Origin: Wenzhouxiangella sp. AB-CW3 | Lineage (GTDB): Bacteria; Pseudomonadota; Gammaproteobacteria; Xanthomonadales; Wenzhouxiangellaceae | DNA length: 24,000 nucleotides | Reading direction: 5' to 3' | NCBI RefSeq assembly: GCF_014725735.1 | Contig: NZ_CP061368.1 | Coordinates: 363,225-387,224, forward strand | Shown: positions 2,638-18,807 of the stretch, in pieces | Layout: every line of letters begins with the position of its first letter | How positions within the stretch are numbered: position 1 is the first letter of the stretch | Made by a program: the position numbers and the translations under genes | The notes under the pieces: generated by a model | Seen by the model: the letters and a program-made list of their open reading frames with translations, nothing else | Databases searched by the model: none | What the model was told of the DNA's origin: nothing

Positions 2638-2681
2638 TCGTGTGCTCTCGCGACTGATCGCCAGGGGGCGTTGACGCCTCC

Positions 2682-4565: not shown

Positions 4566-4640
4566 GGCCGTCCCGTATCTACGGTCAGACCATCACCGTG
4601 TAGAGTGGAGGTTGGTGCAAACACACATTGGAGGTCGAGA

Positions 4641-4829: not shown

Positions 4830-4845
4830 AATTCAGTTCTTAGGT

Positions 4846-5904
4846 TCAGTTCTCACCTTGCCATTCGAGCACGGTCTTGACGACCGGCTCGATGGCAGGT
4901 GGCTCGCCTTCGGTGAGTGGCATCGGCACCAGCAGGCCGCGATGCGAAGCATCGAGGACCAGCGGCTCGGGCTGGTCGGGCAGGGCGAGTGATTCGACCG
5001 GCACCACGCCGTCGCCCAGCCCGGCACCGATATCATCCCAGCGCTCCAGCAACTCTTCGACAACTCCCTCGCGGCCGAATTGTTCGACCAAGGCGGACAC
5101 GCTTTCGGTCATGGCGGGGGTGGGCTCGGCCAGCACTCCGCCAATGATCTTCATCTCCACCCAATCCGGCCAGTCGCGCTCGTTGAGTTCGCCCAGGAAG
5201 CGGCTGTCGGGACGAAGATCGATTTTGGCCGCACCGGTGCCGTCGCGCAGGGCGGCGAAAAGTGAAAAGCGCCGCTCGCGGATGTCGCTGATCCATTCCC
5301 TCAGTTCCAGCCAGGCGCGCAGTCGCGCCCATTCCGAGCCCTGGTTGGGGGTGCCTACCAGGATGACGCCCGCCACCGCAGGCCCATCGACCCGGGCATC
5401 GGCATCGGCCGGATGGCGCCAGCGGGTGATGAAATCCCGGATCACCAGTCCGCCCATGCTGTGGCCGATAAGAATCAGTTCGTGGTCGCTGTCCAGTTCC
5501 GGCCAGTGCTCGGCCAGCAGGTCGGTGCTGTGGTCGATGGCCTGGTCGTTGGGATAACGGAATTCCCATGCGTTGATGCCGGCCTCGTCGAATGCGTTGG
5601 CCAGTTCATCCCAGATGCCGCCAGGTTCGTCGAGCCCGTGTAGCAGCAGCACGTCGGGTGGCCGCGAGTCGTCATGGCGTTGCGAGCGCGGGATGAATCC
5701 AAAGAGCTCGTCGGGCAGTGCCATTTGCTCCGGAAACCAATCGTGCAACTGTTCCTGCACCTGCAGCCGCAATTCGCGCTCTTGTTCCGGATGATGTTCA
5801 GTCCACCACAGCCACTTGGCTATTCCGCCCAGTATGGCAACGGCCACGACCAGGCCGATTGTCCTGCGCCATGGAAAACCTGACCTGCCTTTCCGGGTTG
5901 ACAT
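4846..5904 (-). CDS. Membrane-anchored alpha/beta-fold hydrolase (lipase/esterase-like)
   Basis: Nucleophile elbow GHSMGG. LLLHGLDEPGGIWDEL resembles an oxyanion-hole region. One N-terminal TM helix (IGLVVAVAILGGIAKWLWW). The longest ORF starts at GTG 5928. ATG 5904 (MSTRKG...) is preceded by GGAGG. Confidence 0.8.
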   Translation of the reverse strand: MSTRKGRSGFPWRRTIGLVVAVAILGGIAKWLWWTEHHPEQERELRLQVQEQLHDWFPEQMALPDELFGFIPRSQRHDDSRPPDVLLLHGLDEPGGIWDELANAFDEAGINAWEFRYPNDQAIDHSTDLLAEHWPELDSDHELILIGHSMGGLVIRDFITRWRHPADADARVDGPAVAGVILVGTPNQGSEWARLRAWLELREWISDIRERRFSLFAALRDGTGAAKIDLRPDSRFLGELNERDWPDWVEMKIIGGVLAEPTPAMTESVSALVEQFGREGVVEELLERWDDIGAGLGDGVVPVESLALPDQPEPLVLDASHRGLLVPMPLTEGEPPAIEPVVKTVLEWQGEN

Positions 5905-6051
5905 GCGTGGATGGCCTCCGTATCCCACCTGTAGATCACGATATCACGCGAGAGTTTCTGAGCCATCGTCCGAATGGTGAAGAATGGCTGCGTGGTTACT
6001 GCACTTGGTGGCAGAATCAGTCCAGATCACTCCAGAAACAGGTGCTGCGCC

Positions 6052-7089
6052 ATGCCGATTCGATTCGATCGAAACAAACTCCGGGAAACCCGGCAGACTT
6101 CCTGGCTGATGCTGGACCTGTTCATGGTCGTACTGGTCAGCATCAACCTGGTTTTCATCGTCTTCGACACGCTCTATGGCACCGTGGCCATGCAGCAGTT
6201 GCTCGAAGGCTTCTCGCCCGCATTCAACGCGTTTTACGACGAGCGGGTGCATCAGCATTTTCTCTACTACGACCTGATATTCGTCGCCATCTTTCTGGCC
6301 GAATTCTGCTTTCAGTGGGTGATGTCAGTACGCAAGCGCATTTATCCGCGCTGGTATTTCTACCCTTTCATGCGCTGGTACGACCTGGTCGGTTGCATCC
6401 CCATCGGTTCGCTGAGAATGCTGCGGCTGTTACGGATCGTCTCGCTACTTGTGCGACTGCAGAAGATGGGCGTGATCGACATGACCGAGACGCGCATCTA
6501 TCGCTTCTTCGAGTTCTACTTCAATGCCTTTATCGACGAGGTTTCCGACCGGGTCATGATCCGCACTCTCGACGACGTCAGGCGCGAAGTCGAGGATGAA
6601 ACGCCGATTACCCGCAAGGTGATCACCGAGGTTATCGCCCCGCAGCGCGAGTTGCTGGTCGAGCACCTGTCGCGTCGAATCGGCCTGATCGCGCAGAACA
6701 GCTACCAGCAGCACCAGGACACGATACGGGAGTACGTCGACTCGGTTATTGGCGACGCGGTGCGCGCCAATGCCGGGATTCGCAATCTCGAGCGCGTACC
6801 CATGCTCGGGCGTGCCGTGGTCGGCCAGCTTCAGCAGTCGATCAACGACATCGTTTACGAGGTCTTCGACCGCACTGTTCGCGATGTCAGTGCCGCCGAG
6901 AACAACCGCCTGGTCGACGAAAGTGTCTCGGTCATCATCGATGCCATCCTCGACGACCACCCCGAGCTTGGCGATATCGGCACGAAGATGACAGTGGAGG
7001 CTATCGAGCTGATCAAGGAGCGCGTTCGTGTCCAGCACTGGAAGGATCAGTTGCGACGTCGACATGAGCGGGCGGAGGCCATGCCCTGA
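6052..7089 (+). CDS. Voltage-sensor-like (S1-S4) membrane protein with a soluble C-terminal domain and no pore module
   Basis: ATG 6052 lies in frame within track ORF 5974..7089. There are four hydrophobic helices. The fourth is an S4-type arginine ladder, [19 protein letters not shown]2 carries an acidic residue (FLAEFCF) and S3 carries WYDLVGCIP. The about 200 residues after S4 are hydrophilic, with no further TM segment or selectivity-filter motif. Confidence 0.75.
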
Positions 7090-7178
7090 TTGAAGCCCTG
7101 AATGCGATCTACATTCGTGCCGGGTTAATATCATGCAACTGCATTCGTAGATATCACACCCAAAAGAGGACCACTGGC

Positions 7179-8018
7179 ATGGCCAATCGTCGAGACCTGG
7201 AAGCAGGCATCGAAACCGACCTGAAAGACCGTCTGACCTACTCGGGCTACCTCGGGCTGGAACGCCTGCTCTCGGCCCAGCAGCCGCTGTCGAACCCGGC
7301 GCACCATGACGAGATGCTGTTCATCGTCCAGCACCAGACCTCGGAGTTGTGGATGAAGCTGCTGTTGCACGAGCTGGGTGCGGCAGTGAACCATGTTCGC
7401 TCCGACGAGCTTGAGCCCTGTTTCAAGATCCTTGCCCGCGTCAAGCAGATCCAGCGCCAGTTGTTCGAGCAATGGGCGGTACTGGAAACGCTCACGCCCT
7501 CGGAGTATGCCGAGTTTCGCGGCGTGCTCGGTGGAGCCTCGGGTTTTCAGTCGCCACAGTATCGGGCGCTGGAGTTTCTGCTGGGTAACAAGAATGCCGA
7601 CATGCTCAAGGTCTTCGACCACGAGCCTTCAGTTCATGCCTGGCTGAAGAACTATCTCGACCAGCCCAGCCTTTACGACGAGTTCCTGCGCTACCTTTCC
7701 CGTCGCGGTCTGCCGGTGCCTGCCGACAAGGTTGAACGCGACTGGGCTGAACCCTACGAGTCCGATCCGGGTGTCACCGAGGTGTTTCGCCAGGTCTACA
7801 CCGATCGCGAGGCGCACTGGGATGCCTACGAGATGGCCGAGAAGCTGATCGATATCGAGGAGGGCTTTCATCTCTGGCGCTTCCGCCACATGAAAACCGT
7901 CGAGCGCGTCATCGGCCACAAGCGCGGAACCGGCGGATCGTCCGGGGTGAGTTTTCTCAAGCGCGCGCTCGAATTGCAGTTCTTCCCGGAATTGATTGAC
8001 GTTCGCACAGAAATCTGA
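7179..8018 (+). CDS. kynA: Tryptophan 2,3-dioxygenase
   Basis: AAGAGGA lies 8 nt upstream. Motifs are typical of bacterial TDO: [65 protein letters not shown]...GTGGSSG. Confidence 0.92.
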
Positions 8019-8025
8019 TCACCTG

Positions 8026-8146
8026 TCGTCCCGGAATCGCCGCAGGCGATGTCCGGGACCCCGCACGCATTGGTTCTGTTTGGAGCTGTGCCATGGGCTA
8101 CCGTGCGAGGCCCCGGATATTGCCTGCGGCAATTCCGGGGCGACGG
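8026..8146. repeat. REP/BIME-like pair of inverted palindromic units between the convergent genes kynA and kmo
   Basis: Unit 1 (about 8026-8067) and unit 2 (about 8103-8146) are imperfect reverse complements of each other, roughly 85% by eye. Each contains its own 26-nt hairpin: CCGGAATCGCC-GCA-GGCGATGTCCGG (8031-8056) and CCGGATATTGCC-TGC-GGCAATTCCGG (8113-8138). Confidence 0.8.
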
Positions 8147-8199
8147 CACTTGTATTGTCCCTGCTCCCCGATCCCGTTAACCGTCTCTAGTCTCCTCGT

Positions 8200-8234
8200 T
8201 TACCTTCACCTTTCACCTTTCACCTTTCACTTAT
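8200..8234. repeat. Heptamer tandem array, + strand CACCTTT (mRNA sense AAAGGTG), 3 perfect plus degenerate flanking units
   Basis: Perfect units start at 8207, 8214 and 8221, with degenerate units at 8200 and 8228. The kmo stop codon (TGA, 8222-8220) lies inside the array. Confidence 0.9.
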
Positions 8235-9584
8235 TACTTTCCCCAACCTTTCCCGCACCAGTCGTTCGCCCTCATCCAGATCAACCTCCTCCAGGGAGCC
8301 GGCCTCCCGCGTCAGCTCATCGAGGATTCCGGCCTGTATGCGACCGCGCCGCTGGGCCTCGGCGTAGGGCAGGGTGCGGAACATGACCATGGCGTAGCGC
8401 GGTACATACAGCTCGGGCAGGCGGGTGTAGAGTTCGGCCTCGATCTGTTTTTGCAGCTGAAAGGTCGGGTCGGCGACCTTGTCGCGCATTTCGATGTAGT
8501 TCTCCAGCGCCATGTCGGCGATGGCATCGGCGTTGGGCTTGCGCCGCCTTTCGTATTCGGCCAGCAGGGTGGGCCAGTCGGCGACGTTCTTGTCGAGCAG
8601 GCGGTTGAGCTCGGTGCAGTCCTCGAAGGCGCAGTTCATGCCCTGGCCGTGGAAGGGCACCACGGCGTGGGCGGCATCGCCGACCAGGGCGATGTGGTCG
8701 TGGTGCCAGGGTTGGCAGCGGACCGTGCCCAGAGGGCTGACCGGGTGCTCGGCGTGCTGGCGGGCGAAGTCCTCGCCGACCAGGTCCATGAAATCGGGAA
8801 ATTCCTGTTGGAAGAATGCCTCGGCGGCGTCGGCATCGGCAATGGCGGCAAACGAGCGTTCGTCTCCCTCGTGGGTCAGAAACAGGGTGGCGGTAAAGCT
8901 GCCGTCGGGATTGGGCAGGGCAATCAGCATGAACTCGTGGCGCGGCCAGATGTGCAGGGCATCGGGCGCGAGCCGGTGTGCGCCGTCGGCATCCGGTGGA
9001 ATATTGAATTCCTGGTAGCCGTGGGGCAGCCAGTCGATGGTGGTGTCGGTGTTCGCGCCCGATTCCAGCGCCTGGCGCACGACCGAGCCGGCACCATCAC
9101 AGCCCAACAGGGGGGAGCCGGTCAGGTCGATGGCCGCTCGCCCGGCCGGCTGCAACAAGGCGTTGGCCGGGTCCAGCGATTCGATTGGGCTGTCGAAGTG
9201 AAAGCGCGCACCGGCGGCTTCGGCCGCGTCGATCAGGATCTGGTTGAGTTCGCCGCGATGGACCGAGTGGATGACCTCGTCGGCATGGGTCGAGTAGGGT
9301 TGCAGAGACTGATTGCCGTCGCGGTCGTGGATCATGCGCCCGCGCATCGGCAGTGCCATGTTCATTACCTCGTCGAGCACGCCGATCTCGCGCAGGGCCA
9401 CGATGCCGCGTTCGGACAGCGCCAGGTTGATCGAGCGCCCGCGCTCGACGGCCTGCCGCCGCATGTCGGCGCGCTTTTCGAATACCTCCACGGCCAGTCC
9501 CCGCCGCGCCAGGTAGCAGGCCAGCACACACCCGGCCAGCCCGGCCCCGGCGATGTGGATGGGTTGTTGTTGGTCGATGGTCAT
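8220..9584 (-). CDS. kmo: Kynurenine 3-monooxygenase (FAD-dependent)
   Basis: FAD fingerprint IHIAGAGLAGCVLACYL. Also GRSINLALSERG, PMRGRMIH and GDAAHAVVPFHGQGMNCAFED, as in characterised KMOs. It is adjacent to kynU. Confidence 0.9.
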   Translation of the reverse strand: MTIDQQQPIHIAGAGLAGCVLACYLARRGLAVEVFEKRADMRRQAVERGRSINLALSERGIVALREIGVLDEVMNMALPMRGRMIHDRDGNQSLQPYSTHADEVIHSVHRGELNQILIDAAEAAGARFHFDSPIESLDPANALLQPAGRAAIDLTGSPLLGCDGAGSVVRQALESGANTDTTIDWLPHGYQEFNIPPDADGAHRLAPDALHIWPRHEFMLIALPNPDGSFTATLFLTHEGDERSFAAIADADAAEAFFQQEFPDFMDLVGEDFARQHAEHPVSPLGTVRCQPWHHDHIALVGDAAHAVVPFHGQGMNCAFEDCTELNRLLDKNVADWPTLLAEYERRRKPNADAIADMALENYIEMRDKVADPTFQLQKQIEAELYTRLPELYVPRYAMVMFRTLPYAEAQRRGRIQAGILDELTREAGSLEEVDLDEGERLVRERLGKVISER

Positions 9585-9623
9585 GTGTTTATACCGACTC
9601 CTGATTCATGCGGTACTTGATCT

Positions 9624-9757
9624 GGAAAGAGGGGTAGAGGGGGAGAGGAGGAGAGGGAAAGCCGACAAGAATGACAGGTCGCCACCTCCAAGCAAGTTCC
9701 TCTGACCCTCTCTTCTTCTACTCCTCTAATCCTCTATTCCTCTACCCGTCTTCCCTC
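9624..9757. repeat. Polypurine tract (9624-9661) and polypyrimidine tract (9698-9757), partly complementary; the latter carries TCCTCTA x3 with 8-nt period
   Basis: 9624-9661 GGAAAGAGGGGTAGAGGGGGAGAGGAGGAGAGGGAAAG has 37 of 38 purines. The 9698-9757 tract is CT-rich, with TCCTCTA starting at 9723, 9731 and 9739. 9624-9640 pairs with 9739-9755 at 15 of 17 positions. Confidence 0.85.
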
Positions 9758-9772
9758 ACACATCCGCCAGCC

Positions 9773-11071
9773 TCACAAGCTGTCCATCAGCGCCCTGACC
9801 AGTCGCAGGCAATCATCGTAACGGCTATACATCGGCACTGGCGCGACGCGGATCACGTCGGGTTCGCGCCAGTCGCCGACGATGCCCTGGCCTGTCAGGT
9901 ACTCGAAGACCTCGCGCCCGGAGTGTTCGGGATGAGTGATGCGCAGCGAGAGCTGGCAGCCGCGTCGGGCCGGGTCGGCGGGGGTGATGATCTGGACGTG
10001 TTCGGCCAGCAAACGCCGGACCATGGCTTCGAGGAACCCGGTCATCTTCTCCGATTTCTCACGCAGGGCGTCCATGCCGGCCTCGGCAAACATTTCGGTG
10101 GCCACGCGCACCGGGGTCAGGGCCAGGATGGGCGGGTTGCTGAGCTGCCAGGCATCGGCACCAGGGGTGGCATGAAACTCCGGCCCCATGCGAAAGCGCG
10201 ACCCGGCATCGTGGCCCCACCAGCCGGCAAAGCGCGGGAGTTTTCTCAAGTCGGTGACCCGGCCATGGCGTTCATGCACGAAACAGCCGGCCACGGCTCC
10301 AGGCCCGGAATTGCAGTACTTGTAGTGGCACCAGGCGGCGAAGTCACAATCCCATTCATGCAGTCTCAGGGGTACGTTGCCGGCGGCGTGGGCCAGATCC
10401 CAGCCGATGGGGACACCATGGCGGCGGGCAGTTGCGGTAATGCCGGCGATATCGAACAACTGCCCGGTGCGGTACTGAACGCCCGGCAGCAGCACCAGGG
10501 CCAGCTCGCCGGCATGGGCCTCGATGGCCTCGATGACGCGCCGGTCATCAAGCAGGCCGGAGTCGGGATCGGGGGCGAGCTCGATCAGATCGTGTTCGGG
10601 ATCGCCACCGTGAAAGATGACCTGCGACCAGGTGGCATGGCGGTCGGAAGGAAAGGCCCCAGCCTCGATCAGAATCTTTCGGCGCACGCCTTCGGGGCGA
10701 TAGAAGCTCACCATCATCAGGTGCAGGTTGACGGTAAGACTGTTCATGGCCACGACTTCGTGCGGCTTCGCGCCGACCAGGCGGGCCAGCGGCTCGCGCA
10801 GGAACTCATGCGCCGGCATCCACGGATGCGGTCCCGCGAAATGCCCCTCGACGGCCTGCTCGGCCCACATGTTCAGGTCGGCCTCCAGCGCGGCACGAGT
10901 CGCTTTTGGCTGCAACCCCAGCGAGTTGCCGCAAAAGTAGGCCTGCTCGCCGCCACGGTCGTCGCGCGGAATATGAAATCGCTCGCGCCATCCGCCCAGC
11001 GGATCGGCCTGGTCGAGTTCGCGCGCCAATACGGCGGCTTGTTCCAGGTTGGTGAATTCGGGTGTGTTCAT
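9773..11071 (-). CDS. kynU: Kynureninase (PLP-dependent)
   Basis: The track ORF extends to 11188. I place the start at ATG 11071 (MNTPEFTNLEQA...). Motifs: FCGNSLGLQPK, the PLP-lysine region WCHYKYCNSGPGA, and WGHD...RF. Confidence 0.9.
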   Translation of the reverse strand: MNTPEFTNLEQAAVLARELDQADPLGGWRERFHIPRDDRGGEQAYFCGNSLGLQPKATRAALEADLNMWAEQAVEGHFAGPHPWMPAHEFLREPLARLVGAKPHEVVAMNSLTVNLHLMMVSFYRPEGVRRKILIEAGAFPSDRHATWSQVIFHGGDPEHDLIELAPDPDSGLLDDRRVIEAIEAHAGELALVLLPGVQYRTGQLFDIAGITATARRHGVPIGWDLAHAAGNVPLRLHEWDCDFAAWCHYKYCNSGPGAVAGCFVHERHGRVTDLRKLPRFAGWWGHDAGSRFRMGPEFHATPGADAWQLSNPPILALTPVRVATEMFAEAGMDALREKSEKMTGFLEAMVRRLLAEHVQIITPADPARRGCQLSLRITHPEHSGREVFEYLTGQGIVGDWREPDVIRVAPVPMYSRYDDCLRLVRALMDSL

Positions 11072-11176
11072 GGATACCGGATGGATCGGGAATAGGAATG
11101 GACCGGACAAGATTAACGCAGAGCGGGGCGTGGAACGCGGTCGTGTCTCAGGATTGATATTCGTGGTGGCTTCGAG

Positions 11177-11255
11177 GCCAGCCTCCATTGGGAGGATTCG
11201 CTTCAGTTCGATGCGGTGGCAAGGCCCTCAGCGAATCCTCCCAATGGAGGCTGGC
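11177..11255. repeat. Perfect 26-bp inverted repeat (stem-loop / cruciform), 27-nt loop
   Basis: GCCAGCCTCCATTGGGAGGATTCGCT (11177-11202) is the exact reverse complement of 11230-11255. Each arm carries a sub-palindrome, CCTCC-ATT-GGGAGG. It lies 106 nt upstream of the kynU ATG. Confidence 0.95.
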
Positions 11256-11347
11256 ATGCCCTGCGGGGGAGGCGAAGAGGCGAAAGGTGAAAGGCAGAGA
11301 TCCGTCCGGCACCCGGAAACGGATTCTGAGCGTCAGCTTCATGATTT

Positions 11348-11448
11348 CCCTGAACCCTGAACCCTGAACCCTGAACCCTGAACCCTGAACCCTGAACCCT
11401 GAACCCTGAACCCTGAACCCTGAACCCTGAACCCTGAACCCTGAACCC
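11348..11448. repeat. Perfect heptamer tandem array, + strand (CCCTGAA)x14 plus CCC; mRNA/minus strand (TTCAGGG)n
   Basis: I counted units starting at 11348 + 7n for n = 0..13, with no substitution, followed by a partial CCC. The array lies between the stop of the cyclase-family gene (11461) and kynU. Confidence 0.97.
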
Positions 11449-11460
11449 GTAAAGCGTCCC

Positions 11461-12309
11461 TTACCCCTCCTCCCAGAGGTTCTTCGGGCAGGCGAGCGGA
11501 AACACCACCGGCCGACTCGGCACCGCATCCGTACACCAGTCCGGCAACTGCAGGTTCAGCAGGTACAGCCCGTCGGGCACCTCGTCGGGTACAAAAACGA
11601 ACTCGGTGACCGTGCGTTCGGCCACGGTCTCTTGCGTCGGCTGGCGGTCTTCGTTCAGGGCCCAGAAGCGGCGATGGGCCGGCAGACTGCCGTCATCCTG
11701 GCCTCGGTCGATGGACGGAGTGTCGACCAGCAGGTGTTCGACGCCGCGATGCAGCAGCCAGTCGATGGCTTCCAGGGTGAAATAGGGATGCGGATTGTCG
11801 CCCTGGTATTGTCGCTGCCGCTTGCCCGGATCGTTGGGCCGGGTGCGAACGATCAGCGCCGGGGTGTCGATATCGGCAGCGGATAGGTCGGCACGGCTGA
11901 TGACCTTCTCATTGGCCTGGCCCGGCGGAGGATAGGTCTCGCCGGTCTGCTTGCAGACGTGGGTCATCACGCTGACCACGCGCGCGGCCATCCAGGCCGG
12001 CGGGCAGGGTGGTTCGGTGAAGGCATGGCTGAGGTGGGCAATGCTTTCGGTGTGGGTGCCGTGGCAGTGGGGAGTGAGCTCCAGACGCTCGACATTGCAC
12101 GACCCGCCGCGCGCGGTATCGCCGACGAAGTTACCGGCTTCCAACGCCTGGGCACTGGCCGGTTCAACGCCGTAGAAAGAGGGTTGGCTTCCGGCAAAAT
12201 CCAGCGGCAGGGCCAGGCTGATGCCGGTATTCCCATCAGCCTGGTAGCGTTGTCCCCGGTGTTCGAACCACAGCTTCAAGCGAATTGATCCCGCTCGAGC
12301 CCCAGCCAC
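11461..12309 (-). CDS. Cyclase-family protein, putative kynurenine formamidase (divergent KynB)
   Basis: Putative-cyclase family layout: metal motif HCHGTHTESIAH (canonical H.GTH.D.P.H), then LIVRTRP, then EAIDWLLHRGVEHLLVDTPSIDR, then AHRRFW. Its position between ACMSD and kynU supports the role. The start is uncertain: GTG 12309 overlaps ACMSD by 34 nt, while TTG 12279 would give a TTGA start/stop overlap. Confidence 0.7.
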   Translation of the reverse strand: MAGARAGSIRLKLWFEHRGQRYQADGNTGISLALPLDFAGSQPSFYGVEPASAQALEAGNFVGDTARGGSCNVERLELTPHCHGTHTESIAHLSHAFTEPPCPPAWMAARVVSVMTHVCKQTGETYPPPGQANEKVISRADLSAADIDTPALIVRTRPNDPGKRQRQYQGDNPHPYFTLEAIDWLLHRGVEHLLVDTPSIDRGQDDGSLPAHRRFWALNEDRQPTQETVAERTVTEFVFVPDEVPDGLYLLNLQLPDWCTDAVPSRPVVFPLACPKNLWEEG

Positions 12310-13304
12310 TCCAGCGCCGTGCCGTGATAGAGCCGTTCACGCGTGGGCTCGTCCAGGTCGAGACTGTCGATGCCGCTGCCGGGCTGCTGTTCGCCCAGCG
12401 GGAAGGGGTAGTCCGTGCCCATGGCGATGCGCTCCGGGCCCATCAGCTCGAGCAGGTATTCCAGTGCCTTCTGGTCATGCACGCAGGAGTCGAGGTAGAA
12501 GCGGTCGAGGTAGTCGCGCGGGCCACCGTTGGGATTGTCCACCGCGACCAGGTCCGGGCGCATGCGCCAGCCGTGCTCGATACGGCCGATGGTGAACGGG
12601 AAGCTGCCACCACCATGGGCGAACAGGACTCGCATGTTCGGGTGACGGTCGAACACGCCGCCGAAGATCATCGAGCAGATCGCGCGCGACTGCTCGGCCG
12701 GCATGCCCACCAGCCACGGTAGCCAGTACTTGTTCATCGATTCCTTGCCCATCATGTCCCAGGGATGCACCAGGACGGCCGCGCCCAGGTCGCTGGCCGC
12801 GGCAAATACAGGCTCTAGCTCGGGGTCATTCAGGTTCCAGCTGTTGATGTGCGAGCCGATCTGTACGCCCCTGAGGCCCAGCTCCTTGACACAACGTTCC
12901 AGCTCGCGTGCGGCCAGTTCCGGTGCCTGCAGCGGCAGGGTGGCCAGGCCGGCCAGGTGACGCGGATGTTCGCGGCACTGCTCGGCCAGGTGGTCGTTGA
13001 GATACTGGCCCAGGTAAAGCGCGTGCTCGGGATCGGCGTGGTAGCTGAACATCACCGGCACGGTGCAGGCGACCTGCACCTGCACGCCCTTGGCGCCGTA
13101 GTCGGCAATGCGTTGCTCGATATCCCAGCTCAGGGGATCAACCGCCCGGAAGAACTTGCCGTCCTTATGAATCTCGGCCTTGCTATCGTCCCGGCCGGTG
13201 TCGTGGTGAATGGTCGGGAAGCCGGTGGTGTTGAACTTCTCGTTCAGATCCGGCCACTCGCGCGGCAGGATGTGGGAGTGCATGTCGATTTTGAGCATAT
13301 TCAT
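12276..13304 (-). CDS. 2-amino-3-carboxymuconate-6-semialdehyde decarboxylase (ACMSD, amidohydrolase-2 family)
   Basis: The track ORF extends to 13454. I place the start at ATG 13304 ([14 protein letters not shown]), which overlaps the upstream stop as ATGA. Motifs: [37 protein letters not shown]. Confidence 0.88.
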
Positions 13305-13813
13305 TTCTCCGGATGCAGATGCCCACACTGCGGACAGGTGCGATTCTCCTCGCTGCTGAAGAAGCGTTCGAACACCGGCGGGAAATCCTTTTCGATGTTC
13401 TTCAGCTCGAAGTATTCCTCGTAAACGCAAGCATTGCATTCCGGGCAGAACCACATCAGGCCGTCCTTCTCTTCCGGCAGGCGTTTGCGTTCGATGACCA
13501 GGCCGACGGTATCGGCGAACCGCTGCGGCGAATGCGGCACTTTCGGCGGCAGCAGGAAGATCTCGCCCTCGCGGATGGTGATGTCCTTCGGCTGGCCGTT
13601 CTCGATGACCTTGAGCAGCATGTCGCCCTCGACCTGATAAAAGAATTCCGGGCCTTCGTCGTAATGGTAGTCAGTGCGCTCGTTCGGTCCGCCCACCACC
13701 ATGACGATGAAGTCCTCGTCGGACCAGATCATCTTGTTGCCCACCGGGGGTTTCAGCAGGTGGCGGTTGTCCTCGATCCATTGCTTGAAGTCGATTGGCA
13801 TGCTTGGCAACAT
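13301..13813 (-). CDS. nbaC: 3-hydroxyanthranilate 3,4-dioxygenase
   Basis: Cupin core [18 protein letters not shown] ... [12 protein letters not shown], plus C-terminal CPECNAC ... CPQCGH (a rubredoxin-like site known in bacterial HAO). The track start is ATG 13828. ATG 13813 ([13 protein letters not shown]...) has GAGG 6 nt upstream. Confidence 0.9.
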
Positions 13814-13817
13814 GGTG

Positions 13818-13843
13818 GACCTCTTCATCTTGGTGAAGAGGTC
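13818..13843 (-). promoter_or_regulatory. 10-bp perfect hairpin covering the Shine-Dalgarno / alternative start of the 3-hydroxyanthranilate dioxygenase gene
   Basis: GACCTCTTCA (13818-13827), loop TCTTGG, TGAAGAGGTC (13834-13843). On the mRNA the 3' arm contains the GAGG that serves ATG 13813. ATG 13828 sits at the stem/loop border. Any function is inferred only. Confidence 0.4.
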
Positions 13844-13864
13844 AGTGTAAAGTGTGAAGTGTAA
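13844..13864. repeat. Heptamer array AGTGTRA x3, the inverted counterpart of the 13956-14004 array
   Basis: AGTGTAA AGTGTGA AGTGTAA. The reverse complement of 13844-13866 matches the CTTCACACTTCACACTTCACACT register of the downstream array at about 21 of 23 positions. Confidence 0.85.
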
Positions 13865-13955
13865 AGAACAAAGAGGTGGGTGCAGGCCCCTGACGCTTTT
13901 CCCCTTCCGTAAGCCCGACAGAATCCAGCCTACTCAAGCCCCAGCCGCAAGCCGT

Positions 13956-14004
13956 ACTTCACACTTCACACTTCACACTTCACACTTCACACTTCAAATT
14001 CACT
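13956..14004. repeat. Heptamer tandem array, + strand ACTTCAC (mRNA sense GTGAAGT), 5 perfect plus 2 degenerate units
   Basis: Perfect units start at 13956, 13963, 13970, 13977 and 13984, followed by ACTTCAA (13991) and ATTCACT (13998). The RidA stop codon (14002-14000) lies in the last unit. Confidence 0.95.
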
Positions 14005-14425
14005 CGTCCCCCAAATAAGCAACACACTTCAACTCGACTGCAATCGGCGTGGGCAGTGCCCCGACCTCCACCGTGGTGCGGCAGGGGCGGTGGTCGGTGA
14101 AGTGTTCGGCGTAGATACGGTTGAAGGTGGCGAAGTCGCGTTTCATGTCGGTCAGGAACACGGTCACGTCGACCAGGTCTTCCCAGCGCGCACCCGAGGC
14201 TTCGAGAATGGCGCGGACGTTGCGAAACACCGAGCGAGTCTGATCGGCGACATCGTAGGCGATCACTTCTCCTTCCTCGTTCAGCGTCACGCCGGGAATG
14301 TCTTTTCCCTTCGGCGCACGGGGTCCGACGCCGGACAGAAACAGGAACGGCCCGGCGCGTCGTGAATGCGGGTAGGCGCCGACGGGGGGTGGGGCGTTTT
14401 CGGTGCTGTGCTCTTGGTTGCTCAT
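14000..14425 (-). CDS. RidA/YjgF-family deaminase, putative 2-aminomuconate deaminase
   Basis: 141 aa with RidA-family features (GVGPR..., VTVFLTDM.DF..FN..Y, RPCRTTVEVGALP...VELKCVA). It lies between the semialdehyde dehydrogenase and HAO, as in known aminomuconate pathways. The specific substrate is an inference from context. Confidence 0.75.
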   Translation of the reverse strand: MSNQEHSTENAPPPVGAYPHSRRAGPFLFLSGVGPRAPKGKDIPGVTLNEEGEVIAYDVADQTRSVFRNVRAILEASGARWEDLVDVTVFLTDMKRDFATFNRIYAEHFTDHRPCRTTVEVGALPTPIAVELKCVAYLGDE

Positions 14426-14457
14426 GGTGTCATTTTCTGTTGATTGCTCTTTAGGGT

Positions 14458-14492
14458 GAAGGGGAAGACGTGAGACGGAAGATGGAAGGCGG
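14458..14492. repeat. Purine-rich heptamer array (RAGAYGG-like x5), the inverted counterpart of 14523-14578
   Basis: GAAGGGG AAGACGT GAGACGG AAGATGG AAGGCGG. The reverse complement CCATCTTCCGTCTCACGTCTTCC matches 14537-14559 (CCATCTTACGTCTCCCGTCTTCC) at 21 of 23 positions. Confidence 0.85.
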
Positions 14493-14519
14493 TAAAAAAG
14501 GGCACTTATCCCATCACGG

Positions 14520-16019
14520 TCACCGTCTTACGTCTCCCATCTTACGTCTCCCGTCTTCCGTCTCCCGTCTCCCGTCATCGCCAATCGCCACGCACACATT
14601 CTTCGGCTCGGTAAAAAACCGCATCGCCTCGAAGCCGCCTTCCTTGCCCAGGCCGGAGGCCTTGTGGCCGCCGAAGGGGGTTCTCAGGTCGCGTTTCATC
14701 CAGCAGTTGATCCAGATGATGCCGGCCTCCAGGCGCGCGGCCATGCGGTGAGCGCGGTCGATGTCGCGGGTCCAGACCGACGCGGCCAGGCCGTAGTCGA
14801 CGCCGTTGGCGATCGCCAGCGCTTCTTCTTCGTCGATGAAGGGGATCAATGTGGCCACCGGGCCGAACACCTCGGCCTGGTTGATGTCGGCTTCCGGTCC
14901 CAGGCCATCGATCAGGGTCGGTTCGATGAACCAGCCGTCGTCGCAGCGCCCGCCCGGTCGGCCGGGCTTTCCGCCGACCAGAACCTGTCCGCCGGCCTCG
15001 CGAGCCTGCTCGATATGGCCCATGACCTTGTCGAACTGGACCTTCGAAACCACCGCGCCCTGGTCGGTGCCGGTCTCCAGTGGATCGCCGACGACCAGCT
15101 TGCCGGTGCGCTCGATGAGCTTGTCGCGGAAAGTCTTGTAGATGTCTTCCTGCACCAGGATGCGCGAGCCGCAAAGGCAGATCTGGCCCTGGTTGGAAAA
15201 CGCCGCTCGCACGACTTCATCGGCCGTGGCGTCGAGATCGACATCGTCGAACACGACCGTCGGGTTCTTGCCGCCCATTTCCAGCGCCAGCTTGACGAAG
15301 CGCGGCGAGAGTTCGGCGGCCAGCATCCCTCCGACTCGGGTCGAGCCGGTGAAGGTCAGCGCCTTGAGCGCGCGGTGGGATGACAGCGCCCTGCCGGCGC
15401 TGTCGCCGGAACCGTGCACGATGTTGAGCACGCCGGCCGGAAAGCCGATTTCTTCGGCAATGCGCGCCAGCATCCAGGCACTGGCAGGCGTGACCTCGGA
15501 AGGCTTGGCCACCACCGTGTTGCCGGCGGCCAGTGCCGGCGCGATCTTCCAGCTCATCAGATAAAGCGGCAGGTTCCACGGCGAGATGGCGCCGACCACG
15601 CCCAGCGGTTGGCGCAGGGTGTAGTTGAAGCCGGACGGCCCCATGTCGTGCGCTTCGCTGAAGAACTGGCTGGCCGAGGCGGCGAAGAAGCGCAGGTTGC
15701 TGACCACCCGCGGGATATCGACTGAGGCGGCGAGCGCCAGCGGTTTGCCGGTATCGATGCTCTCGGCGCGGGCTAGCTCGTCGGCATGACGCTCGACGGC
15801 ATCGGCCAGCCGGTTGAGCCAGTGCGCACGCTCATCGGGCAGCAGCGCCGACCAGTCGCCGAAGGCACTTTCGGCAGCCGCCATGGCCTGGCCGATATCG
15901 TACTGGCCGGATTCTGCGACGGTCGCGTATTCCGCCCCGGTGGCCGGCTCGAATACCGGCAGAGTCTTGCCGGTTTGGGCCGGGGCAAACTCGCCGCCGA
16001 TGTAGTTCTCGACGCGCAT
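14520..16019 (-). CDS. NAD-dependent aldehyde dehydrogenase, putative 2-aminomuconate-6-semialdehyde dehydrogenase
   Basis: ALDH catalytic motifs LEMGGKNP and GQICLCGSR, plus NAD-binding FTGSTRVG. The ATG at 16019 abuts the SDR stop (16022-16020). Substrate is assigned from operon context. The last about 19 codons are repeat-encoded (see findings). Confidence 0.88.
   Translation of the reverse strand: MRVENYIGGEFAPAQTGKTLPVFEPATGAEYATVAESGQYDIGQAMAAAESAFGDWSALLPDERAHWLNRLADAVERHADELARAESIDTGKPLALAASVDIPRVVSNLRFFAASASQFFSEAHDMGPSGFNYTLRQPLGVVGAISPWNLPLYLMSWKIAPALAAGNTVVAKPSEVTPASAWMLARIAEEIGFPAGVLNIVHGSGDSAGRALSSHRALKALTFTGSTRVGGMLAAELSPRFVKLALEMGGKNPTVVFDDVDLDATADEVVRAAFSNQGQICLCGSRILVQEDIYKTFRDKLIERTGKLVVGDPLETGTDQGAVVSKVQFDKVMGHIEQAREAGGQVLVGGKPGRPGGRCDDGWFIEPTLIDGLGPEADINQAEVFGPVATLIPFIDEEEALAIANGVDYGLAASVWTRDIDRAHRMAARLEAGIIWINCWMKRDLRTPFGGHKASGLGKEGGFEAMRFFTEPKNVCVAIGDDGRRETEDGRRKMGDVRR
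14523..14578. repeat. Heptamer tandem array, + strand CCGTCTY-like x8 (mRNA sense GAGACGG), encoding the C-terminal tail of the aldehyde dehydrogenase
   Basis: Units: CCGTCTT ACGTCTC CCATCTT ACGTCTC CCGTCTT CCGTCTC CCGTCTC CCGTCAT. The whole array lies inside the 3' end of ORF 14520..16019. Confidence 0.92.
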
Positions 16020-16796
16020 CTACAGACTGCCGAGCCGGCCGCCGTCGACCGGCAGGTTGATTCCGGTGATGTAGCCGGCCAGCGGTGAGCACAAGAATGC
16101 GATGGCCGCGGCAGTCTCTTCCGGCTTGCAGAAGCGGCCCAGCGGCACGCCGGCAAGCATGGTCTTCTGTACCTGGTCTTCGCTGGTGTCCTGCGACTTC
16201 GCCTTGCCGGCCACCAGGCTGTCCAGACGCGGCGTCTCGGTAAAGCCGGGCAGGACGTTGTTGACCGTGATGCCGTCGGGGCCCAGTTCACGCGACAGCG
16301 TCTTGGCCCAGGCCGCCACCGCGCCGCGAACTGTATTGGACACGCCCAGCCCGGGAATCGGTTCTTTCACCGAGGTCGAAATGATGTTGACGATACGCCC
16401 GTAGCCGGCTTCGCGCATGCCCGGCACCAGCGCCTGGGCCAGGCGTTGACCGGCGATGAGATGCTGGTGAAAACCGACTTCGAACTCGTCCGGGTGGGCA
16501 TCGATGGCCCGCCCGGCTGGTGGTCCGCCGGAGTTGTGAATCAGAATGTGGTAGTGCCTGTCGCTCAGGTTCTCCAGACCGTCGGCTAGTGCCGCGGGGT
16601 CTCCGAGGTCCAGCGCAAGAAGATCGTGCCCGTCGCCCGGCAGAGTCTGATGGACGGCAGCAAGACGCTCCTTGTTGCGCGACAGCAAGGTGACTGTGGC
16701 GCCGCAGTCTGCAAGAGTCGAGGCGGTCGCTGCACCGATACCCTGACTGGCTCCGCAGATCAGGGCTCGTCGGCCCGATAGATCCAGGTTCAACAT
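16020..16796 (-). CDS. Short-chain dehydrogenase/reductase family protein with a non-canonical active site
   Basis: Rossmann motif ALICGASQGIGAA, then NSGGP and IVNIISTS. At the position where YxxxK is expected the sequence reads S-N-T-V-R (GVSNTVRGAVAAWAK). It is the first gene of the minus-strand operon. Confidence 0.8.
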   Translation of the reverse strand: MLNLDLSGRRALICGASQGIGAATASTLADCGATVTLLSRNKERLAAVHQTLPGDGHDLLALDLGDPAALADGLENLSDRHYHILIHNSGGPPAGRAIDAHPDEFEVGFHQHLIAGQRLAQALVPGMREAGYGRIVNIISTSVKEPIPGLGVSNTVRGAVAAWAKTLSRELGPDGITVNNVLPGFTETPRLDSLVAGKAKSQDTSEDQVQKTMLAGVPLGRFCKPEETAAAIAFLCSPLAGYITGINLPVDGGRLGSL

Positions 16797-17087
16797 GGTG
16801 TTTGGATGACTTGTGAATATGACAGGAATTCGAGGTTATCACAGCTCAGAAAGGACCTGAATCGGGCTGGCCCTGGTTTTTCCTCCCGCGTACCTTGGCT
16901 CAGATTTCGGGGTGTCCGACACGCTTGTGGAGGCAAACTGTGATGTGCCTTTCCGTTTGGCCCCAGGTGATCTGCGCCTTCACATTCGATAGCTTTCATG
17001 TAGATAGACTGCCGCCTCGATTGGGACGCCTCGACGTCCTGAATTCTGCTGACCTGAAGAGTTGGCGCAGCCATTGAGGAGGTAAGA

Positions 17088-17465
17088 ATGGAAATCATCA
17101 AGTTCGGTAATGACAATATCGAGAACACACTGGCCAAGATGAAAGACAGTGAACTCGACGATCTCGCTTTCGGTGCCATTCAGTTGGACGCCGCCGGAAC
17201 GATTCTTCAGTACAACGCTGCCGAGGGAGACATCACCGGGCGTGATCCAAAAGCCGTGATCGGCAAGAACTTCTTCAGGGATGTAGCGCCATGTACGGAC
17301 TCCAGAGAGTTTCGCGGCAGGTTTGAAGACGGTGTCAAGGATGGCAACCTGAACTCCATGTTCGAGTATGTCTTCGATTACGAAATGCAGCCGACCAAGG
17401 TCAAGGTCCACATGAAGACCAGCCTGTCAGGTGACAGCTACTGGGTGTTCGTCAAGCGAGTCTGA
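17088..17465 (+). CDS. pyp: Photoactive yellow protein (PAS-fold blue-light photoreceptor)
   Basis: 125 aa, colinear with Halorhodospira halophila PYP as I remember it (..[79 protein letters not shown]). Tyr42, Glu46, Thr50, Arg52 and the chromophore Cys69 (TGT 17292-17294) are all present. A strong GAGGAGG lies upstream. Confidence 0.97.
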
Positions 17466-17619
17466 TGTTCTATGCAGTCAAGCCGTGACCGCATTAATAA
17501 CCAGCAACGCTGGTCTCAATAGTCATGGTCGCTGCCTTTTGGGAGATCATTGGCGCTGAACTCAGAGAGCAGAACTGCTGCCAGTGATTGCTTCAACTGC
17601 CTGTCATAAGGGGTGATAC

Positions 17620-18807
17620 TTGGAACTTGATGCCCATCTGCTTCGCCCGGTGATCGCCAGTCTGATCACGGATGAACTGGCCGATATGCGAGGTGTCGGT
17701 CGGCTTGACCTTTCATCCGGCAGTTGGAATGGAGCCACCGTCATCGGTAGCGATGAGCTTCCCGTTGACTCCATCGAGATGGTCTCGTTGGCCACGAGCT
17801 GCGCCGAGTTGTTCGGGCTGCAGGAAACGGGGGCTGGCGACTACCTGCTTCGCTATCGATCCATAGCCGAGTGGGCAGAGCTGGCCGTCGACGGCATTCG
17901 GGATACCGGGATGGTGTCGTTCCGCACCTCTGGCACGACCGGCAACGCCAAGACAGTGTCCCATCGGCTGGTCGATCTTGAGCAGGAAGTAGTGGAGTTA
18001 ACTCATCTCGTGCTCGGCGTCCGACGAATGGTCTCCCTGGTGCCCGCCCATCATATCTACGGTTTCCTGTTCACCGTGCTTTTACCAATGCATCTGGGAC
18101 TGCCGGTCAACCGGGACGGGTGCTTGTCCGGTCTTCCTCCCCGGCATCTCGAGTCCGGTGACTGGCTGATTGGTTTCCCTCTTCGCTGGCGCCAGATCAA
18201 ACGCTTGCGGCGGGAAATTCCTTCTGGTGTTTCGGCAGTCACATCGACCTCGCCCTGTCCTTCCGAGCTGGTGCAAGACATGAAGAGTCTGGGCCTTGAT
18301 CGCATGCTGGCCATATACGGTGCGACGGAGACTGCAGGCGTTGGATACCGATTCGATGCGGAACAGCCTTATACCCTGTTTGACTACTGGAGCTGGTCCG
18401 GAAGCAGGCTGCATCGTTGCTGCAAGGATGGCCGACTGATCGAGATTGAACCCGAAGATGAGCTGGCGTTCGAGAACGATGGTCAATTCCGGCCCATGGG
18501 CAGAAAGGACACGGTGGTTCAGGTGGCCGGCAGGAATGTGCGTCCGGAACATGTGGCTGCCCGCATCACTGCTCATCCCCTGGTTGAACGTTGTAGTGTG
18601 GAGTTGGACACAACCCGGGATGAGCCTCGCCTGACTGCTTCGATCATTCTGGTATCCAATGCCAGTGCCACCGACGCGGAGTCTGTGTTGCATCGCTGGG
18701 CACAGGAGAAGCTCAACAGTGCCGAACGCCCGATGCGCTGGACTTTTGCCGGAGAATTGCCGGCCACGGCTACGGGCAAAACACGCGGCTGGAGCCTGTC
18801 GTCTTGA
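17620..18807 (+). CDS. pcl: p-coumarate-CoA ligase (adenylate-forming enzyme for the PYP chromophore)
   Basis: AMP-binding core motifs TSGTTGNAKTV and YGATETAG. About 395 aa, short for the family, as known for pCL. TTG start at 17620. It is sandwiched between pyp and tal. The substrate is inferred from context. Confidence 0.85.
   Translation: MELDAHLLRPVIASLITDELADMRGVGRLDLSSGSWNGATVIGSDELPVDSIEMVSLATSCAELFGLQETGAGDYLLRYRSIAEWAELAVDGIRDTGMVSFRTSGTTGNAKTVSHRLVDLEQEVVELTHLVLGVRRMVSLVPAHHIYGFLFTVLLPMHLGLPVNRDGCLSGLPPRHLESGDWLIGFPLRWRQIKRLRREIPSGVSAVTSTSPCPSELVQDMKSLGLDRMLAIYGATETAGVGYRFDAEQPYTLFDYWSWSGSRLHRCCKDGRLIEIEPEDELAFENDGQFRPMGRKDTVVQVAGRNVRPEHVAARITAHPLVERCSVELDTTRDEPRLTASIILVSNASATDAESVLHRWAQEKLNSAERPMRWTFAGELPATATGKTRGWSLSS

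Follow-up and report, generated by a model that had tools for sequence, protein, structure and literature searches.

Unit-diverse heptanucleotide arrays and repeat-built hairpins at the junctions of a Wenzhouxiangella kynurenine operon

The kynurenine/2-aminomuconate gene cluster (kyn operon) of Wenzhouxiangella sp. AB-CW3 carries five short tandem-repeat arrays, each built from a different unit, at the junctions between its genes and at its 3' end. The cluster lies in a stretch of 24,000 nucleotides of contig NZ_CP061368.1 (positions 363,225 to 387,224 of the forward strand), hereafter the window, to which coordinates refer unless a relative is named. Four of the arrays have a period of 7 nt (x3.7 to x14.4) and one has a period of 8 nt, as detected in the window with Tandem Repeats Finder (TRF). 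Relative to a stop codon, each of the five starts between -57 and about +25 nt; on the mRNA strand all are rich in purines, and complementary partner arrays accompany three of the five, giving the mRNA the potential to form long hairpins. The arrays are locally enriched in the operon; in close relatives they persist at the same junctions with other units, both arms of a hairpin changing together, and arrays of this kind recur in other lineages and gene contexts. The explanation we favor, with a probability of about 0.55, is that they are slippage-driven repeats whose arms are homogenized by template switching, that have spread locally, and that would act at most as REP-like stem-loops.

Arrays and hairpins in the AB-CW3 kyn operon

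All five arrays had been described by a first-pass annotation made from the sequence alone, and TRF recovers each of them at the coordinates given there. The anatomy it reported is upheld as well, with arrays at or just past stop codons, purine- or G-rich on the mRNA, three of them having downstream complements that can pair in several registers. The arrays, their partners and a related tract are as follows, with TRF units and, where given, the mRNA-sense unit in parentheses.

11348–11448, minus strand: array 1, cyclase/kynU junction; CCCTGAA x14.4, 100% match (TTCAGGG in mRNA sense)
11262–11300 (TRF 11270–11295), minus strand: pyrimidine-rich tract downstream of array 1; TTCGCCT-like x3.6
13956–13996/14003–14004, minus strand: array 2, purine arm, RidA/HAO junction; ACTTCAC x5.9, perfect (GTGAAGT in mRNA sense)
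13844–13866, minus strand: array 2, pyrimidine partner; ACTTCAC/ACTTTAC x3.3
14523–14576/14578, minus strand: array 3, purine arm, ALDH/RidA junction; CCGTCTC x7.7, 76% match (91% as a 14-mer)
14463–14492, minus strand: array 3, pyrimidine partner; CTTCCGT/CTCACGT-type units
8205–8230 (8200–8234), minus strand: array 4, kmo end; TTCACCT x3.7, perfect (AAAGGTG in mRNA sense)
9698–9745 (tract to 9757), minus strand: array 5, purine arm, kynU/kmo junction; period 8, NTAGAGGA x6, 70% match
9628–9657, minus strand: array 5, pyrimidine partner; CCCCCTCT-like x3.8

Listed by unit, the five are GGGTTCA, GTGAAGT, GGGAGAC/GTAAGAC, GTGAAAG and NTAGAGGA; the flanking genes are co-oriented for four of them and convergent for the fifth. 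Array 1 begins 15 nt past the cyclase stop and has no complementary partner. We infer that the tract at 11262–11300 may form pairs with the cyclase gene's end, which is rich in purines, and similar tracts are present in two of the relatives described below (L087 and L088). Array 2 begins 3 nt past the RidA stop codon. Array 3, whose mRNA-sense heptamers are of the GGGAGAC/GGAAGAC/GTAAGAC type, codes for the last ~19 codons of the aldehyde dehydrogenase (ALDH), with a tail peptide that starts GDDGRRETEDGRRK and ends in GDDGRRETEDGRRKMGDVRR directly before the stop. Array 4 overlaps the kmo stop codon and is without a partner arm, and array 5 lies in a purine tract ~25 nt past the kynU stop.

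The genes of the cluster were assigned with Pfam and the published AB-CW3 annotation (PMC7691419 supplement), and are listed here with the protein abundances published in the same supplement for conditions 1/2/3. The main text of PMC7691419 mentions neither these repeats nor the kynurenine pathway.

8220–16796, minus strand: kynurenine/2-aminomuconate gene cluster, whole (Pfam, published annotation and proteome table)
16020–16796, minus strand: SDR; 0.032 / 0.012 / 0.011
14520–16019, minus strand: ALDH; 0.0017 / 0.0039 / 0.0007
14000–14425, minus strand: RidA-type 2-aminomuconate deaminase; 0.021 / 0.022 / 0.024
13301–13813, minus strand: HAO; not detected in conditions 1, 2 or 3
12276–13298, minus strand: ACMSD; 0.004 / 0.006 / 0.006
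11461–12279, minus strand: cyclase-family formamidase; 0.005 / 0.002 / 0.002 (0.0047 unrounded in condition 1)
9773–11071, minus strand: kynU (kynureninase); 0.012 / 0.012 / 0.010
8220–9584, minus strand: kmo (KMO); 0.013 / 0.011 / 0.006

The TDO gene is convergent with this minus-strand cluster (Pfam, published annotation). The kynU start in the published annotation is at 11071, versus 11188 in the first-pass annotation, and the cyclase/kynU spacer is therefore 389 nt long instead of 272 nt.

The arrays are concentrated in the operon, as had been proposed. The contiguous AB-CW3 sequence surveyed spans 41.2 kb, comprising the window and 17 kb upstream taken from a Logan contig. TRF finds no period-7 array outside 8205–14576 in the window and none in the 17 kb upstream, such that the arrays are confined to 6.4 kb of operon and the ~35 kb of flanks are without any. 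Among spacers of at least 60 nt in the 41 kb, arrays are present in 5/5 kyn spacers vs 0/17 others (Fisher p=3.8e-5), and when only co-oriented spacers are considered the counts are 4/4 vs 0/9 (p=0.0014); the arrays are therefore not a feature of most intergenic regions in the surveyed sequence. It had also been observed that the junctions without arrays are those at which the cistrons abut or overlap, and this is the case. The clade relatives show a like concentration, with ~2 arrays in ~105 kb outside the operon. Perfect arrays of period 7 with at least three copies number three in the window and zero in 200 first-order Markov simulations, and chance is therefore no explanation for the period-7 arrays; for the other periods from 4 to 12 there is never more than one perfect array of at least three copies in the window.

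Several simple readings of the arrays were rejected. They are not CRISPRs, having a period of 7 and no unique spacers, nor are they CsrA-type arrays of GGA motifs, only arrays 3 and 5 being GGA-rich. A coding role for the TTCAGGG array was discarded, the sole open reading frame across it starting out of frame within the cyclase gene. The cumulative GC skew rises across the window and the locus lies ~0.37 Mb into the closed genome, so that the minus-strand kyn operon is probably head-on to replication; this orientation was rejected as the sole cause, other minus-strand genes nearby having no arrays.

The spacers with paired arrays fold into long stem-loops on the mRNA strand, and two further palindromes that are not tandem arrays lie within or beside the operon.

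ALDH/RidA spacer, mRNA strand: -59.1 kcal/mol, z=-3.7, 0/200 shuffles as stable
RidA/HAO spacer, mRNA strand: -75.3 kcal/mol, z=-4.0, 0/200 shuffles as stable, 23 consecutive pairs
kynU/kmo spacer, mRNA strand: -71.2 kcal/mol, z=-2.2, weaker, 8/200 shuffles as stable
11177–11255: cyclase/kynU spacer, inverted repeat of 26 bp, perfect (I5, 100% complementary), around a loop of 27 nt
8025–8144: convergent kmo/TDO spacer, REP-like inverted pair (I1) whose arms of 43 nt are 86% complementary

An inverted-repeat finder reports the arms of array 3 as repeats I6/I7, with 83–86% complementarity in two registers, and the arms of array 2 as repeats I2–I4, I8 and I9 in several registers. The TTCAGGG and AAAGGTG arrays remain largely unpaired in the folds. 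The palindrome at 8025–8144 folds at -93.6 kcal/mol (z=-3.9). No match at gathering score was found in Rfam 15, the array hairpins reaching only 25–33 bits with eukaryotic miRNA hairpin models whose gathering scores are 60–97.

Unit turnover in relatives and recurrence in other lineages

Syntenic operons from soda-lake metagenomes, found by KMO search and genomic context, provide a set of relatives whose KMO identities to the window are 91% (L084, L085 and L086), 87% (L087), 82% (L088) and 71% (L089). The five junctions compare as follows.

ALDH/RidA: GGGAGAC-type hairpin in the window and L084; degenerate GGGAGAC-type in L087; hairpin with a 10-nt unit in L088; short spacer and no array in L089
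RidA/HAO: GTGAAGT + ACTTCAC in the window and L084; AGGTGTT + TAACACC in L087; HicAB inserted in L088; short spacer and no array in L089
cyclase/kynU: TTCAGGG x14 in the window; none in L084; TTTCCGG/ATTCCGG x2 in L087; TTTCCGG x8 in L088; no spacer in L089
kynU/kmo: TAGAGGAN + CCTCT-rich in the window; CACGAAG(N2-4) + CTTCGTG in L084 and L087; GAAGAGG x3 only in L088; no spacer in L089
kmo end: AAAGGTG x3–4 in the window, L084 and L087; GGKTTCC x4 + GGKTTCA x4 in L088; short spacer and no array in L089

Over this short evolutionary distance position is kept while unit, period and copy number change. The kynU/kmo spacer is wholly replaced between the window and a 91% relative, and the flanks of the cyclase/kynU array are common to the window and L087. 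The first-pass annotation held that a conserved function would be improbable if the orthologous operons of close relatives had no arrays; arrays do occur at the same junctions at 82–91% KMO identity, but the 71% relative is compact and array-free, with spacers of 0–46 nt and no array at any kyn junction, and a conserved operon-specific function is therefore unlikely. The idea that each unit is a fixed property of its junction does not stand, as units turn over from relative to relative and are seen again at further junctions and beyond the operon.

Both hairpin arms change together between relatives. The duplex formed by the window's own kynU/kmo arms has an energy of -73.0 kcal/mol, vs -38.6 and -33.7 kcal/mol when its partner is the 3' arm of L084 or L087, and the reciprocal chimeric duplexes reach -18.0 and -20.1 kcal/mol; at the ALDH/RidA junction of L088, the energy is -58.7 kcal/mol for its own arms vs -18 to -47 kcal/mol for chimeras. 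This co-variation fits RNA-pairing selection and DNA-level palindrome homogenization alike and does not decide between them. A comparison of the sense and antisense strands is mixed. At RidA/HAO the sense fold is the better one in three genomes (-69 vs -47, -65 vs -54 and -51 vs -44 kcal/mol), the window's sense fold exceeding its antisense by 22 kcal/mol with 11 G-U pairs. Sense-strand advantages are also seen at ALDH/RidA in L087 (9.6 kcal/mol) and at kynU/kmo in the window (4 kcal/mol); the two strands are equal within ~1 kcal/mol at ALDH/RidA in the window and L084 and at kynU/kmo in L084 and L087, and at ALDH/RidA in L088 the antisense strand folds better by 6.7 kcal/mol. Of the non-array palindromes, that at 8025–8144 is conserved in L084 and L087, and that at 11177–11255 is also present in L087, with one position changed on both arms such that pairing is kept, and two mismatches between the arms.

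Since a 7-nt unit does not amount to whole codons, the C-terminal tails of ALDH and KMO change along with the arrays. The array-encoded AB-CW3 ALDH tail exceeds those of four relatives by 14–19 amino acids, and KMO is 454 amino acids long in the window and L087 and 466 in L084. L084 and L085, which come from independent assemblies, are 99.98% identical over 16.7 kb yet differ by 49 bp (7 units) in one array, CTTCACA x3 in L084 (675–698) vs x10 in L085 (626–698), which could be either a true polymorphism or an assembly collapse. This array is not part of the operon; it immediately follows the stop codon of a phosphoribosyltransferase gene, 2.3 kb upstream of the kyn genes, and the unit GTGAAGT is common to this array and to the RidA/HAO array ~5 kb away in these two relatives. 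Sharing of units is also seen in L088, where TTTCCGG is present at two junctions, and where a decamer-unit hairpin, GTCCACAGATGAACACAGAT...ATCTGTGTTCATCTGTGGAC, likewise occurs at two (L088 4890–5060 and 6525–6600). One of these decamer hairpins forms a 103-nt HAO/ACMSD spacer, a gap of 0–2 nt in the window, L084 and L087 and of 8 nt in L089.

Three other features of these loci are noted. A HicA/HicB-like toxin-antitoxin pair (70 and 62 amino acids, the latter matching PF07927 HicA_toxin) is present at 5570–5967 of L088 in the RidA/HAO spacer, at the exact site occupied by the GTGAAGT/AGGTGTT hairpin in the other genomes. In L087 (11575–12399) the TDO gene is called as three fragments of 54, 173 and 61 amino acids, reflecting either a pseudogene or frameshift errors in the contig. 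A minus-strand block of the window at 11100–11124 (GCTCTGCGTTAATCTTGTCCGGTCC), ~30–55 nt upstream of the annotated kynU start at 11071, is near-invariant in the window, L084, L087 and L088, where the rest of the spacer is not alignable; it is probably an internal promoter or operator, and in that case the operon may consist of two transcription units, SDR-to-cyclase and kynU-kmo.

Similar arrays are present in more distant genomes. A sample of 80 KynU-containing loci (1.39 Mb) was drawn from the KynU matches listed, with relatives at no more than 63% identity, and heptamer arrays of at least three copies cluster in a few of the genomes among these listed loci. In a Rhodanobacteraceae metagenome-assembled genome (L018), each of four sites has a GAGGGCT array, the longest with 14 units, that begins at a stop codon or a few nt beyond and leads through a short loop into a C-rich array. 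A second metagenome-assembled genome, from Rhodanobacter (L073), has GGGATTC and GGGACTC arrays as inverted pairs. The kyn genes of both are without arrays, which sit elsewhere in the two loci. Between the G-rich and C-rich arrays of L018 (1440–1455, 16140–16155 and 17045–17060) there is a core that reads GTAAAGCTTTTTCCAC twice and is the variant GAAGAGCTTTTTCCAC once, and this recurrence hints that the L018 arrays flank a dispersed element.

An Acidobacteriota contig (L103, Thermoanaerobaculales-like, 1–11939, GC 63%) carries six arrays within 12 kb, with heptamer or octamer units that differ, among them TTCAGGG x11 only 2 nt past a urocanase stop and a G-rich/C-rich inverted pair after queC; unit-diverse stop-proximal arrays are therefore not confined to the Gammaproteobacteria. 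The contig was considered as a relative of AB-CW3, and this was rejected by a urocanase search. Metagenomes were also scanned with the degenerate pattern (GGKTTYM)x4, which additionally fits the plant and algal telomere unit GGGTTTA. Among the 120 matches listed (L090–L209) most consist of GGGTTTA units and lie on contigs of low GC, presumably telomeres of the algal or plant type, and several contigs mix GGGTTTA and GGGTTCA units; no Wenzhouxiangella relatives are among the matches listed.

Proposed origin and competing explanations

In the explanation that we favor, the arrays would be long simple-sequence repeats of period 7 (occasionally 8–10), a kind over-represented in some high-GC bacterial genomes, which in one soda-lake Wenzhouxiangella subclade would have settled at the module boundaries of the kyn operon and would keep remodeling them. 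Replication slippage would expand and contract the arrays, intrastrand template switching (quasi-palindrome correction), pairing selection, or both would keep the facing arms complementary, and local copying would spread units to neighboring spacers. On the polycistronic mRNA the paired arrays are predicted to form stable, register-tolerant stem-loops whose start coincides with the upstream stop or lies a few nt from it. The likeliest effect, if any, would be REP-like, shielding the upstream segment from 3'-5' decay and insulating neighboring cistrons. The unpaired TTCAGGG x14 and AAAGGTG x3.7 arrays would most simply be recent lineage-specific expansions; of these two, only TTCAGGG x14 could form a G-quadruplex (G4).

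The proteome shows that the operon is expressed, with no polarity over the hairpins: ALDH at 0.0017 is followed by the RidA-type protein at 0.021, and the cyclase at 0.0047 by KynU at 0.012. No consensus site for a Rho-independent terminator is found on the minus strand within 7800–17200, and the pyrimidine arms run into mixed sequence, not a U tract. The arrays are therefore unlikely to be terminators, there being no site on the mRNA strand and the downstream proteins being equally or more abundant. The proteome values are compatible with segmental stabilization, with internal promoters, or with no effect, and cannot distinguish among them. A separate 9-bp hairpin (GACCUCUUC-ACCAAGAU-GAAGAGGUC; 13818–13843, minus strand) stops 4 nt short of the HAO start codon; it sequesters GAAGAGG, the likely Shine-Dalgarno sequence, and its conservation extends to L084 and, in part, to L087. 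Alone among the kyn proteins, HAO is undetected in the published proteomes.

Several points weigh against slippage and local spread as the full account. A purely neutral genome-wide process would not predict such enrichment in one operon, and a Poisson estimate for at least five arrays in 6.4 kb gives 2e-7 to 5e-6 at background or Xanthomonas-like densities; the 41 kb surveyed amounts to 1.1% of the AB-CW3 genome. Persistence at the same five junctions at 82–91% KMO identity, despite wholesale replacement of the units, could be due to selection for structure. The modeled RidA/HAO sense folds, 7–22 kcal/mol better than antisense in three genomes and with more G-U pairs, hint at an RNA-level constraint. 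Local copying is suggested by only three cases of unit sharing, and protein abundance is a weak proxy for transcription through the spacers.

In a tentative alternative, possible rather than probable, the arrays are selected intercistronic RNA elements whose pairing, not sequence, is kept, and through which the segments of the kyn mRNA would be made to differ in stability, processing or translation. Arms made of tandem units would give robustness to slippage, and the operon would carry such elements because stoichiometry counts in a pathway with reactive intermediates. The same junctions are occupied in four lineages with both arms switching unit together; however, in the 71% relative a compact operon that has no hairpins serves the same pathway, L084 has no cyclase/kynU array, and the HicAB insertion in L088 replaces the RidA/HAO hairpin. 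The three folds beat their shuffles (z=-3.7, -4.0 and -2.2), but of the five arrays two lack a partner arm, and the folds leave them unpaired. The sense strand is favored over antisense at RidA/HAO in three genomes, with G-U pairs, whereas the near-symmetry of the two strands at ALDH/RidA and kynU/kmo in most genomes is as expected of DNA-level palindromes. Adjacent cistrons are more than 10-fold apart in protein abundance, although the largest jump (SDR to ALDH) falls across an abutting, array-free junction. Strong operon enrichment, and the same role having been proposed for cyanobacterial STRR hairpins, speak for such elements.

More doubtful is a class of elements conserved in structure and free in sequence, with arms of tandem units that would let pairing persist through slippage in whatever register; slippage and arm-to-arm template switching would renew the hairpins, and operon-specific selection at the five boundaries would retain them to set mRNA stability or translation cistron by cistron. 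If this were true, the hot spot would reflect operon-specific selection, beyond local copying.

It is unlikely that the arrays are small non-autonomous mobile palindromes (REP/MITE-like) repeatedly inserted in the operon spacers, with the tandem units internal to them. The L088 decamer hairpin at two junctions, at one of which it forms a new 103-nt spacer, would be readily explained in this way, as would the core GTAAAGCTTTTTCCAC conserved in three L018 arrays (as a variant at one), the REP-like palindromes that coexist in the same spacers, and the complete replacement of the kynU/kmo spacer between the window and a 91% relative. However, the five AB-CW3 junctions have none of the shared ends or core expected of an element that a transposase recognizes, no sequence is common to the array hairpins of different junctions, target-site duplications were not observed, and the decamer element is absent from a further 21 kb of the same metagenome. 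There is no RAYT or transposase gene in the window, nor any gene resembling one in the 41 kb of AB-CW3 sequence. The flanks at cyclase/kynU are conserved and only unit and copy number (x2, x8 and x14) differ, which therefore points to expansion in situ, not insertion.

Quite improbable is a role as G4 elements in mRNA or non-template DNA, modulating transcription or translation, a role that has been suggested for heptamers of Xanthomonas and Nostoc. The TTCAGGG x14 array has the canonical G3N4 form and is the sole G3N1-7 x4 motif on the mRNA-sense strand in the 24 kb (by regular expression), and G4 formation by GGGAATC repeats has been seen in vitro (Rehm et al., PMC4692102); but such a motif is present in only one of the five arrays, GTGAAGT, AAAGGTG and TAGAGGA having no G3 runs, the orthologous TTTCCGG arrays of relatives are likewise without them, and the kyn arrays show no preference for four units.

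An assembly or polishing artefact of the nanopore-based genome, raised by the first-pass annotation as grounds for dismissal, is essentially refuted as an explanation for the existence of the arrays, the genome (CP061368, 3.84 Mb) having been closed with nanopore reads and Pilon-polished with Illumina reads. An Illumina-only Logan contig from the same isolate matches 7098–11210 at 99.98% with no gap, and arrays 4 and 5 are therefore confirmed as identical there; orthologous arrays are present in three independent metagenome assemblies (ENA, NCBI and JGI). Tandem repeats are error-prone in nanopore assemblies, and the Illumina-only contig stops at 11210, within the 26-bp inverted repeat and ~140 nt before the 101-nt TTCAGGG array, whose exact copy number of 14 comes from the nanopore-based polished assembly alone.

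The comparative result narrows the question to RNA-pairing selection versus DNA-level palindrome homogenization, and the locus is a compact test bed for it, with five arrays and three repeat-built hairpins in 6.4 kb of one expressed operon. AB-CW3 is culturable, with a closed genome and published proteomes, and there is a natural comparison set of relatives with other units and copy numbers, one of them without arrays and with spacers of only 0–46 nt. Should the arrays be neutral, the locus still illustrates the reshaping of intercistronic spacers, and of the C-termini of proteins, by repeats prone to slippage within short evolutionary distances.

The neighborhood of the operon has some features of its own. 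Directly upstream and divergent from it, on the plus strand at 17088–20381, are genes for photoactive yellow protein (PYP), 4-coumarate-CoA ligase and tyrosine ammonia-lyase (published annotation), a complete PYP chromophore-synthesis cluster, though the host is a non-phototrophic predator; none of the three has a value in the published proteome table. Downstream of the PYP cluster, at 20871–23415, are genes for a protein containing a restriction nuclease domain of the Mrr type and for an HsdM methyltransferase of type I. The relatives have neither gene in their syntenic regions, and the two resemble a small defence islet. Two Illumina-only Logan contigs break at 7098–7126, within the spacer that lies upstream of TDO, overlapping by 29 nt, and no tandem repeat was detected at this position.

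Comparison with known repeat systems

Heptamer repeats have been known in bacteria since 1990, when the STRR sequences of cyanobacteria were described; to our knowledge no function or generating mechanism has been established for bacterial heptamer repeats. The element kind seen here, slippage-prone, hairpin-forming heptamer repeats, is thus a known one, and the earlier statement that no such arrays are described in proteobacteria is incorrect, Rehm et al. 2015 having described heptamer arrays in Xanthomonas (PMC4692102) and intercistronic heptamer hairpins having been described in cyanobacteria between hupS and hupL (PMC2670836). No description was found, in the literature examined, of arrays that are concentrated in one operon and differ in unit from junction to junction. 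According to accounts given in PMC4692102 and PMC4679880, Mrazek 2007 found heptamers to be the commonest class of long simple-sequence repeats in most genomes and proposed polymerase slippage.

The closest parallel is Xanthomonas, where each of two genomes has ~185 GGGAATC-type arrays of 2–26 units, 89–93% of them intergenic, mostly between co-oriented ORFs and a mean of 28 nt from the upstream ORF (PMC4692102). Near stop codons they occupy the coding strand, the sense strand being G-rich, there are 70–75 convergent inverted pairs per genome, location is kept between relatives as length and sequence vary, the arrays are transcribed, and the GGGAATC repeats form G4 in vitro (PMC4692102). The arrays of L018 and L073 are of this Xanthomonas type as well. 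The kyn arrays share with the Xanthomonas ones the two or more tandem 7-nt units over at least 14 bp, the intergenic location between co-oriented ORFs within ~50 nt of the upstream stop, the G-rich sense strand, and, in three of five cases, convergent inverted pairs. They differ in that their units are not GGGAATC/GGGANTN, there being no GGGAATC dimer in the window or the clade loci. Xanthomonas has one dominant consensus, GGGANTN, spread evenly at ~1 per 27 kb with a preference for four units, whereas the five kyn junctions have five units with periods of 7–8 (up to 10 in relatives), only one of them G4-competent, and the AB-CW3 arrays all fall within 6.4 kb of the 41 kb surveyed.

The cyanobacterial 7-bp STRR hairpins between hupS and hupL were proposed to stabilize transcripts or to couple translation (PMC2670836), and an array of 26 heptamer units is present between pecE and pecF in cyanobacteria, as cited in PMC4692102. 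Heptamer arrays of several unit types, location in intra-operon spacers and intercistronic hairpins are common to STRR and the kyn arrays; the host here is a gammaproteobacterium, however, not a heterocystous cyanobacterium, and the STRR units are CCCCAGT, GGGGATT and others. STRR is a genome-wide family, whereas the 41-kb AB-CW3 sample has a single hot spot.

In the gammaproteobacterial marine Beggiatoaceae there are intergenic TAACTGA direct repeats with a suspected post-transcriptional role (MacGregor 2015, PMC4679880). Like the kyn arrays these are abundant intergenic heptamers that can overlap the stop codon of the upstream gene, but they have a single unit, are oriented toward and immediately upstream of start codons, and include one inverted case, whereas the kyn arrays are stop-proximal, unit-diverse and often inverted pairs.

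Contingency-locus simple-sequence repeats have units of 1–5 nt in promoters or 5' coding regions and give on/off switching in host-adapted pathogens. As in these, the kyn arrays are slippage-prone and a change in copy number can shift the frame (ALDH and KMO tails), but they are at 3' ends and in spacers, and only non-conserved C-terminal tails are affected.

REP elements reportedly act as mRNA stabilizers, as Newbury and Higgins are said to have shown in 1987, for example at E. coli malE-malF. The kyn hairpins resemble REP/BIME elements in being transcribed palindromes between co-oriented or convergent genes, excluded from promoter regions, and in forming stem-loops 3' of a cistron that are able to give differential expression within an operon. 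REPs are conserved sequences of 20–40 nt, recognized by RAYT and without internal tandem structure, unlike the kyn arms, which are made of junction-specific tandem units; true REP-like palindromes (8025–8144) share the same spacers with the kyn arrays.

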